Shown piece after piece: positions 18,218 to 53,082 of a stretch of DNA of 64,000 nucleotides. The notes below the pieces were generated by a model. It did no database searches, was not told the origin of the DNA, and saw only the letters and a list, made by a program, of their open reading frames with translations. The position numbers were made by a program, and so were the translations under genes. Origin of the DNA: Eledone cirrhosa (taxonomy: Eukaryota); contig OZ024741.1 of assembly GCA_964016885.1 (NCBI GenBank), forward strand, positions 292,578,001 to 292,642,000. Direction: 5' to 3'. How positions within the stretch are numbered: position 1 is the stretch's first letter; each line of letters begins with the position of its first letter.

Positions 18218-18610
18218 AAATGAACACAAATACACACAGACACCCGGATGTGGCGCATGCGCAAACTAAGAACACAACACACACACAGAAACAAAATGGC
18301 GTAGGATAGAAGAAAGGAAAGGCACAGAAACAAAGCAAGGAATCCCCAGTCACTGAAGAGGTCACAGAGTGTGTGACGAAAGGACTATGACTATATATAA
18401 ACAACTATCTGGTTGTGGAACCAACCAACCAGAAATTTATAGGTTTGTAAAGTTGTAAATTTATAAATTTATAAATATATAATAAATTGAAGTGAAAGCA
18501 ACTGGTGCGTGTGTTTCTTATTGGCAACATGACCCTCCCAAAGTATAATAATATCGGTTTCAACACACGATTTCAGATAAAGAATCTTGTTAAACAAATT
18601 CAGAAACGAA
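18218..18610 (+). mobile_element. Hammerhead-bearing non-coding element, family B copy 1
   Basis: Colinear with the reverse complement of 52642..53082 (GCATGCGCA, AAAATGGCGTAG, hammerhead, 3' block atgaccctccc.aagtata..cacacgatttca); ends in (TA)n. Confidence 0.75.
18348..18392 (+). ncRNA. Type I hammerhead ribozyme (family B)
   Basis: AGTCA CTGAAGA g GTCACA gagtg TGTGAC GAAA ggac TA TGACT: perfect 5-bp stem I, 6-bp stem II, intact core. Confidence 0.85.
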
Positions 18611-19459
18611 ATATATATATATATATACACACACACATAATATATATATATATATACATAATATATAGCTAGCAGAATGAAGAGTGTATTTTGATATTAA
18701 GGCAATAGAAGGCTTCAATATTTCAACTTGAAGTATTCACTATTTCGTGTGCACACTTACAGGAGTTTTTGATCAGAAGAGCTCTGCTGCTAAAAGGTAT
18801 TATCTCATTGATGTTGGAGAGGCTTTCTTTTGTCACTTGATGTTGAATATAATTGATTGAAACACACAACAAAGATGGCATCTAAAATGTAATTTATAAA
18901 ATGAAACAAAAAAATAAAATAAACCATAAAAATCAGTAAAATGTACGAATATCATGTGACAGGACAGGCAATCAATCGTATATTTATTCATACACATATA
19001 TTACTTATATATAACACATATAATGTATTCATTTATATATATATATATGTATATATATATATTCATACATACATATACATATATATATGTGCACACACAC
19101 ACGCACGCATGCACACACACGCATTCTCCATGCTGGTAAATGTATGGCAGGTCAGAGAACCACATTTGAATCATGCATTTCATATTTGGCATGGTTTCTA
19201 TGACTGGATGCCATCCCTAACAAGTCATTCACAGAATGTACTATGTTATTTTTATCATAGCACCAACACTCACACACAGTTTGTATTGAGTGCATTTTAT
19301 TTTGGCATCAGCATTAGTAAGGTTTCCATGGGATTCACAAGACTAACATATATTTGGCCTATGTTGTTTTTGCTAAATCAAGTATCCTCACCCAACAGGG
19401 GTGGGAGAACAGTGATTTGGAGTGAAGGGATCTTTATATATTTATATATATATAATATA

Positions 19460-19742
19460 AAACGATGTCATTCCCAGTGACTGGAATAGCAGCAGCATTG
19501 TCAACTGCTACAGTGATAAAGGAAATTCCCAAGAGAGAAGAAACTACAGAGGCATAAAGCTGATTGACCAAGTCATGAAAGTTACAGAAAGAGTCATTGC
19601 ACAGCTGATTTGAGATTGTATATGCCTAGACGAGATGCCATTTTGATTTGTGCCAAGAAAAACACTACTGATGTCCTCTTTCTTGTGAAGCAAATGCAAG
19701 AGAAGTACTTGGCTAAAAGGAAGCTGCTCTACTTAGCATTCA
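19460..19742 (+). pseudogene. RTE RT fragment
   Basis: NYRGIKLIDQVMKVTERVI..LDEM..LVKQMQEKYLAK..LYLAF with disablements. Confidence 0.85.
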
Positions 19743-20424
19743 TGCAGACAAGCGCTCCATGGATATGAAGAAGATACCAGAGATATAAACATAAGTTAAA
19801 ATGGTCATACACGCTGAGACGATGGTTAAGAAGCCATTAACCACCATAGCCAAAAAAGCGAACAAGCTAAATGGGTCAAACAAAATGAGATATGATTGAA
19901 ATATTTACCATCGGGGAAGATGGAATACTCCGAAATTGGGTTTCTGCAACACCTAAATCAATAATACTGTCTGCTTATAAAAAATAAGCTTTTGGTATAA
20001 TGATCGAACAAGGCATCGCTTTCTCAACAGGTTTTTGTTCTTCTTGCGCCAGAATCTCGCAGGTTATGAAAGCACATGTGAGATTCTAAGGGGAGAAAAC
20101 CCCTATTTTGGCCAGTGAATTCAGCATATGTAGTTATTGCAAAAATTTTCAAAAACCACACAAAATTAATTTAGCTCTCTACCGAGTTGTTTTTAAAATA
20201 AACTTAAGTGATTAATCAGTCAATAGAATTAACTAAAAAGCCAAAAAAATTAACTGGTTAATCGCTTGACTTGGGAGATTAATACAAATATAAATTTAGC
20301 GAGAATCGCATTTCGCAGGTAGAAATTAGCGAAACGCAATTTCCATATTGTGCAGACAAGCGCTCCATGGATGTGAAGAAGATACCAGAGCTATAAACAT
20401 AAGTTAAAATGGTCATACACGCTG
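19743..20424. repeat. 608-bp unit with 74-bp terminal direct repeats
   Basis: 19743..19816 vs 20351..20424 are identical at 72/74 positions. Confidence 0.85.
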
Positions 20425-50739: not shown

Positions 50740-50920
50740 AGTTGAAATGGATGGCTGTTGACTCTGAGGAGTTCATCTGCCTTTTTTACAGCTATTCTGT
50801 TGTGTTACTGGGGCTCCACTTACCCTTCTCACCAAACCAGGGTCAGGTGGGTGGGGAGCTGGTTTAGTCAACAACCACTAGACCATAGATCAGGTTGTAC
50901 TGGGTAACATGGTACCAGTA
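50740..50920 (-). mobile_element. Diverged 5' fragment related to family A
   Basis: Minus strand taccatgttacccagtacaacctg..tggtc..gactaaacc..ccccacc..gagtcaacagccatcc aligns by eye with the family A 5' end. Confidence 0.65.
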
Positions 50921-52641
50921 GCAGGCAGAAGTGTGACCTGACAGCAATACATTTATATAAAATATCAAATCAGATGTCTTGAATGTACATTCCAATATAA
51001 CAATTTCATCATCTGCACCATCATCTGGTTTCTTATACAGGCACAAGGCCAGCAATTTTGGGTGAGGGGGAAAGTCGATTAAATCGACCCCAGTGCGTGA
51101 CTGGTACTTCATTTTATCGACCCCATAAGGATGAAAGGCAAGATTAACCTCTGCAGGATTTGAACTCAGATCATAAAGGGCCATGCTGTAAAGCGTTGCA
51201 TCTGACCCTCTACCAATACAGCCAATCTATCACCTTAATTGCCATAATAATAATAATATTAATCATTCTCATGTTCCATATTCCATGTTGGCATGAGTCG
51301 GATGAGATATTTTAAAGTAGTGTTTTATGGATGGATTTCTTCTTGACACAAACATTTTGTCACCTTTTATGACAAACATTTAGGGGTACTGTGTGCCTAT
51401 TCTATACAACAGAACACCTATAATAAACTGGGGTATGCAACAATAATTATGTTCTGTGTTTGTAAAGGTTTGCCAACGACCCTGTTTCATATGGCACACA
51501 ATTGCTGAAAATACAGTCCAAGTTAACCCCAGCTGCTAATGGTACTTATTTTCAGCTGAGAAGACAGGAGCAATGTGAAATGAAATGCTTTATTCTAGGA
51601 CACAATGCATTGCCTGGTCTGGGGAATGAACTCACAAGCTTATTATGATTATAAGAACATCACCCTAACCATTAGGCTGCATTCCTTCCTAATAATTGTT
51701 TTTACTTTAGGCACAAGGCCAGCAATTTGAAGAGGATTCCTTTAAATCAATCCCTGTACTTACTAGTGCTTTATGTTATCGACCCTGTAAGGATGAAAGG
51801 CAAAGTTAATCTCGGCGGGTTTTGAACTCAGAACATAAAGCACCATAACTCCATGCTGTAAAGCATGGTGTCTGACGCTCTACCAATACTGCCAATACAC
51901 GACCCTATGCCTTCCAAATAATAATATTGATACAATTACATCAACAATTATCTAATTTTCTATTTGATCATTCGTTAAACTCTGTAAAGAACATTTGCAA
52001 ATAATTTTACTCTCTTTTGCGTAATTTTGTTACGAGGCAAATAGCCAAAACAATCAATCTGCGCTGGCACAATGAAAGCACCACTTAGTCTTCACCATAG
52101 ATTCTTGAATAGAAGTTGGTGAAGGTTTGAGACATAAATCACAGCAATTTAATTTCCAATTTATAACTAAACAGGCAAAATGCCTATTGATTGTACTGAG
52201 GGAATAGAACTACGCTGTTTTTATTTTGTTTTGATTTGGATATTTATTCTCAACTTGATTTTTATTAATTCGGTTTTTTTTTTGTTTTTAGGAGGGGGGG
52301 TACTGGTTTAAGTCATGCTGGGTGCATTACCTTCAAGAAATTTAATTGATCGTATGAACCCCAGTACTTATTTTTTAAATCTGCTATTTATTCATTATGG
52401 TTCTGAGTTTAAACCCCACTGAGATCAACTTTGTCTTTCAGGTCCAAAACTCATGGTAATTCATGACCAAAGGGGGTTTTTATGCATATATAAATGTGCA
52501 TATCTGTATATATCTGTATGTATATATCTGTATATATATATCTGTATGTATATATATATATATATATATATATATATTTATATATATATATATATATATA
52601 TATATATATATATATATATTTATATATATATATATATATAT

Positions 52642-53082
52642 TTATTAGTTTTGCGAGGTTTTTTATATGAAATCGTGTGTCGAAACAAATATTGTTATAC
52701 TTGGGGAGGGTCATATTTGTGTAATATTGCCAGAATTAATAACAGAACACACTCACTGTTTGGTGGGTTTTCGCTTCTGTGTCTTTTATATGGGTAATCG
52801 AATTTATTTGGTGCTCACTGTTGCCATTGACTGACCGACGGTCAAAAATAATACAGATACAATATAGACACAAACACATATATATAGTTTATCAAAGTTC
52901 TTTCGTTGCACATCTGCAACACGGTCAGTGGTGCTATTGTTTCCTCCCGTTACATTGTATGTCTACGCCATTTTTATTTAGTCTGTCTATATATTTATTT
53001 ATTTATTTGTTTGTTTGTTTATTTTATTTTGTCTTCTTTGCGCATGCGTTTGCGTGTGTGTATAGTGTTTTGTTTGATATAT
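52642..53082 (-). mobile_element. Family B copy 2 with hammerhead-like motif at 52891..52932
   Basis: Minus strand: acca CTGACCG t GTTGCA gatg TGCAAC GAAA gaac TT tgat; (TA)n on both sides. Confidence 0.75.

Follow-up and report, generated by a model that had tools for sequence, protein, structure and literature searches.

The closest described systems are Penelope-like elements (PLEs), and the following holds as far as the available parts of the cited publications go. Penelope of D. virilis has an internal promoter in its pseudo-LTR (pLTR) (PMC2377424), and the pLTR of Adineta Pen2a contains the first 12 codons of the ORF, or 22 when the tail is included (PMC3846280). Minimal PLE hammerheads showed no cleavage as monomers and weak cleavage as dimers (PMC4209133), and the hammerhead of PAc is protein-assisted, dispensable in vitro and abolished by G8C (PMC11167929). 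Retrozymes derived from pLTRs exist as well (bioRxiv 10.64898/2026.07.22.740005). In Octopus vulgaris, 31 recently active PLE families were described, and the accessible portion of that article mentions neither hammerhead, nor Neptune, nor Naiad (PMC13282606).

Here, we analysed two repeats carrying promoter-like motifs and a hammerhead in a 64-kb window of the Eledone cirrhosa genome, the window being the whole stretch of DNA under study. This combination is an already known part of Penelope-like elements. We consider it very probable (about 0.93) that both stretches are 5′-truncated 3′ pLTRs of Penelope-like retrotransposons from two families. Copy 1 (18218..18614, +) is a 3′ pLTR of family 1 that ends at ATG+82..86, its last ATAT being common to the pLTR end and the flanking TA run. 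Copy 2 (52644..53078, -) is a 3′ pLTR of family 2, ends at ATG+71 and is flanked by TA runs on both sides. Both start abruptly within family sequence that extends further upstream in siblings; no ORF adjoins either of them and their start points happen to be similar. Copy 1 is 95-97% identical to each pLTR of a full-length family 1 copy (L065) and copy 2 is 95% identical to each pLTR of a full-length family 2 copy (L062). The window copies are without the RT-coding part and are incapable of moving alone.

The search of the genome (3.0 Gb, 1,796 contigs) returned 1,750 first-look candidates for copy 1 and 2,014 for copy 2; 40 candidates were scored and 30 loci examined per family, and the full-length scored candidates are 95-98% identical to the window copies. 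Among the loci listed, many siblings have directly upstream an ORF whose final part comprises RT, Cys linker and GIY-YIG. Among ten 10-kb stretches, L065 and L062 are pLTR-ORF-pLTR copies, each frameshifted, with ATG-to-ATG periods of 4,296 nt and 4,102 nt, respectively. The two source families are young, high-copy, endonuclease-bearing, autonomous Penelope-like retrotransposons with RT and GIY-YIG. The preliminary description had taken the two copies for diverged members of one family; they belong in fact to two, whose proteins are 64% identical in their RT-EN parts and 49% in their N-terminal 246 residues. Among named proteins, the best relative comes from Octopus vulgaris (67%); its C-terminal part is only 59-66% identical to this genome. 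When the genome was searched with the C-terminal end of P0005, no third deep family emerged: of 150 matches, 30 were inspected and proved to be family 1 relatives. ORFs with a WYNP motif, like the near-C-terminal motif of Hydra-clade PLEs (label by eye), are seen at L061 4445-3153 (-) and L065 2005-1235 (-); judging from this motif, other PLE clades likely share this genome. The window also holds a 34-bp tandem array of near-identical units (43575-44322) and unrelated ORF fragments that look LINE-like by eye in their RT (60546-61487, +; 56497-57081, -; 27538-28059, -; 20633-21106, +).

A block of about 65 bp had been noted at the 3′ end of both copies. It is indeed present in both, but its identity had been missed: it is coding and translates as the start of the ORF (MTLPKYNN...). 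Together with the tail, it amounts in copy 1 to codons 1-28 of the family 1 ORF (18529..18612, +; tblastn 96% to residues 1-28 of P0002), and copy 2 holds codons 1-24 of the family 2 ORF (52643..52714, -; tblastn 100% to residues 1-24 of P0004). In L062, the MTLPK frame continues into the DKSG motif of the RT. A comparison of the two window copies across 22 codons shows 11 differences, of which 8 are at third, 2 at first and 1 at second codon positions, and a similar N-terminal peptide is found about 70 nt past the hammerhead of a 49%-identical relative (L116). Nucleotide conservation reaches 86% in the first 22 codons versus 52-60% in codons 29-190. This may point to an additional function at the RNA level; the signal at fourfold sites is not clear (4/7 vs 3/11 and 4/7), and a search of the 3′ block for conserved RNA structure found none (z +1.1 and -1.7). 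Before the ATG, copy 1 carries a splice-donor-like GTGCGTGTGTT (18505..18515, +), 11/11 columns of which are unchanged in three subfamilies, and copy 2 a splice-donor-like GTGAGTGTGTT (52746..52756, -) kept in 26/27 of family 2; no common splice acceptor was seen by eye in the translated-alignment output.

Copy 1 contains a minimal type I hammerhead (18348..18392, +) with a 5-bp stem I, CUGAAGA, an extra base 9a, a 6-bp stem II, GAAA and a GGAC insert, and its predicted cut falls after 18387. The hammerhead of copy 2 (52893..52930, -) has a 2-bp stem I, a 6-bp stem II and a privately mutated core. The compensation proposed for stem II is confirmed, GTCACA/TGTGAC (18361-18377) and GTTGCA/TGCAAC (52920-52905) differing by two compensated pairs; the basis for covariation is this one between-family comparison (2 pairs) and varied stems in distant relatives. 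Of 26 distant relatives scanned, 6 carry a hammerhead on the + strand just past the ORF end, and the stems of these are unrelated. A relaxed hammerhead scan of the 64-kb window gave 5 matches, a G-C closing pair with a compact stem occurring only in copies 1 and 2, and an Rfam search of the window gave no match at gathering score. Hammerhead columns are unchanged at 35/40 positions across the family 1 subfamilies (p 0.002 vs other columns). The core reads CTGANGA in 27/30 family 1 siblings and CTGACGA in 26/30 of family 2, from which copy 2 departs by G8 to C and A9 to G. Its CTGACCG, found in 1/30 (the window copy only), had already raised the suspicion of inactivity, and this is supported since the change is private to copy 2 and G8C kills the tested PLE hammerhead (PMC11167929); the ribozyme of copy 2 is predicted to be dead. 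A U3-A8 core swap, as reported for Cercyon elements, was observed at L120 2764 and L141 2426 (TTGATAA, TTGAAAA).

In the energy model, the active dimer lies 9-13 kcal/mol below two active monomers for 5/5 sequences, and the active fold, monomer or dimer, is never the minimum-energy fold. The folding z-scores of the hammerheads are only -0.8, and the helix III inserts GGAC, GAAC and GAGC are imperfect palindromes. The hammerhead agrees with the dimer-type motif published for PLEs. The monomer is predicted to cleave poorly; cleavage would require a strand-swapped dimer or assistance by a protein.

Ahead of the hammerhead, the motifs named in the preliminary description were all recovered where it had placed them, and in the order that it had given, in both copies. 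The NRF1-like motif is GCGCATGCGCA in copy 1 (18253..18263, +), containing a match to CGCATGCGCA at 18254(+), and CGCATGCGCA itself in copy 2 (53039..53048, -), at 53048(-). The YY1-like motif is AAAATGGCGTAG in copy 1 (18293..18304, +), where it is also readable as ATG-GCG-TAG, and matches AAAATGGCGTAG in copy 2 (52963..52974, -), with AAAATGGCG at 18293(+) and 52974(-). In the whole 64-kb window, CGCATGCGCA and AAAATGGCG are confined to the two copies, with a single occurrence of each per copy. Copy 1 has in addition an ETS-like CCGGATGT (18244..18251, +), previously unmentioned and absent from family 2, and a putative TATA-like run just after the hammerhead (18392..18401, +), whose 10-mer ACTATATATA is common to copy 2. 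ETS, NRF1 and YY1 are the transcription-factor labels that we take to fit these motifs, and their cluster matches what are presumably three common housekeeping-promoter sites.

The only 12-mers common to both non-coding parts are CGCATGCGCAAA (NRF1-like) and AAAATGGCGTAG (YY1-like). Four common GC-rich 10-mers were reached in 0/2,000 dinucleotide shuffles, at least one appearing in 48/2,000; the sharing exceeds what chance would give. Within the families, the ETS-like motif is found in 28/30 of subfamily 1a, 17/19 of 1b, 5/13 of 1c and 0/27 of family 2; CGCATGCGCA in 30/30 of 1a, 25/27 of family 2, 6/13 of 1c and only 2/19 of 1b; and ATGG[CT]GTAG in 29/30 of 1a, 27/27 of family 2, 17/19 of 1b and 10/13 of 1c. 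The expectation that the motifs be better conserved than their flanks is borne out in part. In the family 1 alignment, ETS/NRF1/YY1 columns are unchanged at 24/28 positions versus 142/225 for the others (Fisher p 0.02), the motifs being partly chosen after inspection and the other columns including low-complexity sequence; this comparison covers subfamilies of 30, 19 and 13 copies, 13/75 loci, in which the ATG anchor could not be located, being left out. On the other side, subfamily 1b has lost half of the NRF1-like site, where it carries ACACATGCGCA, and family 2 is without the ETS-like motif.

The 260-nt stretches that follow the ORF match in 15 distant relatives contain no NRF1-like site and 2 YY1-like sites. 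A CRE-like TGACGTCA occurs 9 times in 3,584 nt after the ORF (6/15 distant relatives) versus once in 33,949 nt of ORF; between the ORF end and the hammerhead, we observed it strongly enriched in L116, L117, L118, L125, L141 and L146. The upstream pLTR of a tandem would act as an internal Pol II promoter of housekeeping-type sites, and its transcripts would read across the downstream pLTR and reach the beginning of the ORF that follows. Our literature search found no paper linking YY1 to a Penelope pseudo-LTR promoter. As far as the motifs allow us to judge, many dispersed promoter-like cassettes could influence host transcription.

The GC-rich motifs might instead be signals at the RNA or translational level, as an ATG-GCG-TAG micro-ORF or as RT-binding sites, or the TATA run after the hammerhead might be the promoter core, in which case transcription would start downstream of the 5′ ribozyme. 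We regard this as possible though doubtful, and it contests only the detail of the promoter. The motifs fit, in one cluster, what we take to be three common housekeeping-promoter sites, and a further site of this type, TGACGTCA, follows the ORF in distant relatives; both points speak against it. In its favour, all four groups retain ATGG[CT]GTAG together with the stop, ACTATATATA follows the hammerhead in both families, a start past the hammerhead would spare the cap, and a TATA-like box has been reported in a pLTR (PMC3846280).

The preliminary description had given two options, the first being a self-contained, self-cleaving mini-element promoted by Pol II. Spelled out, this explanation is a non-autonomous mini-element or retrozyme, transcribed, self-cleaving and amplified as a unit of about 400 nt. 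Window copies without adjoining ORF and starting at similar places could be read in this way, and pLTR-derived retrozymes offer a precedent (bioRxiv 10.64898/2026.07.22.740005). However, the 5′ ends of the 60 loci are spread from 1 to >1,490 nt upstream, 42/60 loci extending at least 250 nt and just 5/60 at most 30 nt, the window copies being two of these five. Moreover, there are no head-to-tail pLTR arrays among the family 1 loci and the 3′ block evolves as coding sequence, which makes this explanation highly improbable: the copies derive by 5′ truncation from two autonomous RT+GIY-YIG families. The other option given there, a solo Penelope pseudo-LTR, was essentially right, the copies being truncated pLTRs. 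Solo pLTRs, which have been reported (PMC3846280), could also be left when both pLTRs of a full element recombine with each other, and the TA runs on both sides of copy 2 would fit; such an origin is nevertheless unlikely here, as both copies begin inside longer family sequence, like many siblings of varied length, and simple 5′ truncation accounts for all copies.

For the truncated 3′ pLTRs that we favour, a heuristic places 101/115 3′ ends (105 loci) next to a TA run. These ends lie against (TA)n and recur at fixed positions within the ORF, near ATG+26 and roughly between +69 and +86. In family 1 (71 ends), 19 fall at ATG+26 and 36 at +86, and in family 2 (44 ends), 12 fall at ATG+26, 7 at +69, 7 at +71 and 11 at +84, counts that are biased to long ends because L001-L060 were chosen with queries containing the long end. 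Among 30 loci picked by their ORF, 19 ends were scored, with 10 at +86/87, 6 at +26 and 3 elsewhere; of the 11 unscored loci, 3 end within the ORF, while 6 extend as far as the ATG block. Each end site shares 2-4 nt of AT identity with its target. AT identity alone is not site-determining, since at least 25 of these 30 loci continue through the longer TA runs that lie upstream of the ATG and do not end in them. On the 5′ side, 17/60 extend beyond the locus boundary; of the remaining 43, 24 have an inverted piece, and only 3 direct junctions are TA-rich. Thus, pLTRs from partial tandems, inverted 5′ pieces and an optional tail are found here as in PLEs, and the ends match the picture of tail and inverted pLTR drawn in the available part of PMC8557442.

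The base-precise ends at (TA)n suggest, from their sequence, microhomology priming. Insertion likely proceeds by nicking of (TA)n repeats, and fixed positions within the beginning of the ORF are the likely priming sites of reverse transcription. With copies in the thousands that are nearly identical and have base-precise ends, the internal-initiation model, demonstrated so far for a single element in vitro, could be tested at the genome level. A 50-nt end of an abundant SINE-like repeat (18166-18216, +) abuts the 5′ junction of copy 1, its remainder being absent on the far side; a template switch, or a truncated insertion at a later time, may account for it. Further copies of this repeat lie near 16872, 17692, 41508, 45792, 47039, 47466 and 48802.

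We also examined the parent protein, a single ORF with a telomerase-like RT, as in EN+ PLEs. Its AlphaFold model has a pLDDT of 83.7 and Foldseek ranks 1-7 are telomerases, with low TM-scores (0.30-0.34). Pfam RVT_1 and GIY-YIG matches stay below gathering score (GIY-YIG E 7e-4, P0001 only). The GIY-YIG domain has the CCHH residues of EN+ elements (VVY..C..C..YIG..H..H); EN follows RT in 31/32 scorable proteins and is preceded by a CX4CxxC Cys linker with 7 residues to the next Cys. The minimal hammerhead in the pLTR, also a PLE trait, is recognised by sequence and structure pattern only. A PDB sequence search gave only two weak bacterial RT matches, and the ESM Atlas returned generic RT/DUF8422 clusters with no clade name. 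An Asn/His/Thr-rich, frameshift-prone low-complexity stretch runs from the N-terminal domain to the RT in L062 5891-7540 (-) and L065 5595-6728 (-).

The RT has a fingers insertion of about 70 aa together with a C-terminal endonuclease. The distance from RT3-Asp to motif-B is 129-137 aa in 80/81 measurable proteins (of 124) and 127-162 aa in 45/45 (of 145), the proteins measured being chosen by likeness to the query; the profile search gave 1,819 clusters at E 1e-30 or better, of which the best 150 were examined. By eye count in Fig S1 of PMC8557442, this distance is about 60-63 in Penelope, Nematis and Neptune rows, about 87 in Naiad and about 118 in human TERT, and the available text assigns the fingers insertion to N-terminal-EN Naiad/Chlamys and sporadic Coprina. 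GGPIG, GGAIG, GPPTRP and LYGLRKDHK do not occur in the accessible supplement text of that survey, where gapped rows and DNA-only entries would escape such a search. A literature search on the fingers insertion and Nematis found nothing beyond the available parts of PMC8557442, bioRxiv 10.64898/2026.07.22.740005 and PMC3846280.

As for named clades, Penelope/Poseidon was set aside because its lack of a CX2-5CxxC linker is contradicted by the CX4CxxC found here. Neptune, a paraphyletic clade (PMC8557442), has a long linker spacer and no fingers insertion in the few Fig S1/S2 rows compared, versus a 7-residue spacer and a ~70-aa insertion here. The Hydra clade (no CCHH, DKT, CxCX5C linker) does not correspond in these traits, and Naiad/Chlamys have an N-terminal EN and no hammerhead, whereas here EN follows RT and a hammerhead is present. 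Relative to Nematis, EN and Cys linker are alike by eye and the RT is about 70 aa longer. The ~70-aa insertion with a C-terminal EN may mark an unnamed PLE branch, set apart by eye counts in a few rows of one survey. If this combination is truly absent from the named clades, the published picture changes, and it would bear on how PLEs relate to telomerases.

Compared with Nematis (Craig 2021, PMC8557442, in the parts available), the elements described here share, by eye, a C-terminal GIY-YIG with CCHH and a short CX4CxxC linker with 7 residues to the next Cys, but differ by the RT3-Asp to motif-B distance (about 60-63 aa by eye count vs 127-162 here) and by the DKSG and G[GA][AP]IG motifs. Like Penelope of D. 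virilis and Adineta Pen2a, they have first codons in the pLTR, an inverted 5′ pLTR and Asn-rich ORF inserts; those elements have an internal pLTR promoter, whereas here motifs make it putative, Penelope/Poseidon are without the Cys linker found here, and the Penelope promoter is DPE-type (PMC2377424, PMC3846280). EN+ PLEs also have a retained 5′ intron, for which a donor-like site is the only candidate counterpart seen in our elements. Non-LTR retrozymes, which form non-coding head-to-tail arrays with one hammerhead per unit, were rejected, the copies here being ORF-linked and unarrayed.

The pLTRs of C-terminal EN+ PLEs (Cervera and De la Pena 2014, PMC4209133) also hold hammerheads with an extra base between 9 and 10.1, a G10.1-C11.1 pair, a long stem II, a short stem I and a vestigial helix III, and the majority of their genomic copies are likewise single truncated motifs; the helix III insert differs, being here G-purine-purine-C, an imperfect palindrome. 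In Poseidon PAc of Anolis (Frangieh 2024, PMC11167929), the starts of reverse transcription lie at 111-118 rather than at about +26 and +69 to +86, the reported tail is of 30-40 nt rather than 45-60 nt, and the hammerhead overlaps the ATG instead of preceding it by 140-180 nt; in our elements, each site has in addition 2-4 nt of AT identity to its target. Nonetheless, both systems have AT-rich targets and two reverse-transcription starts within the ORF start that define the tail.
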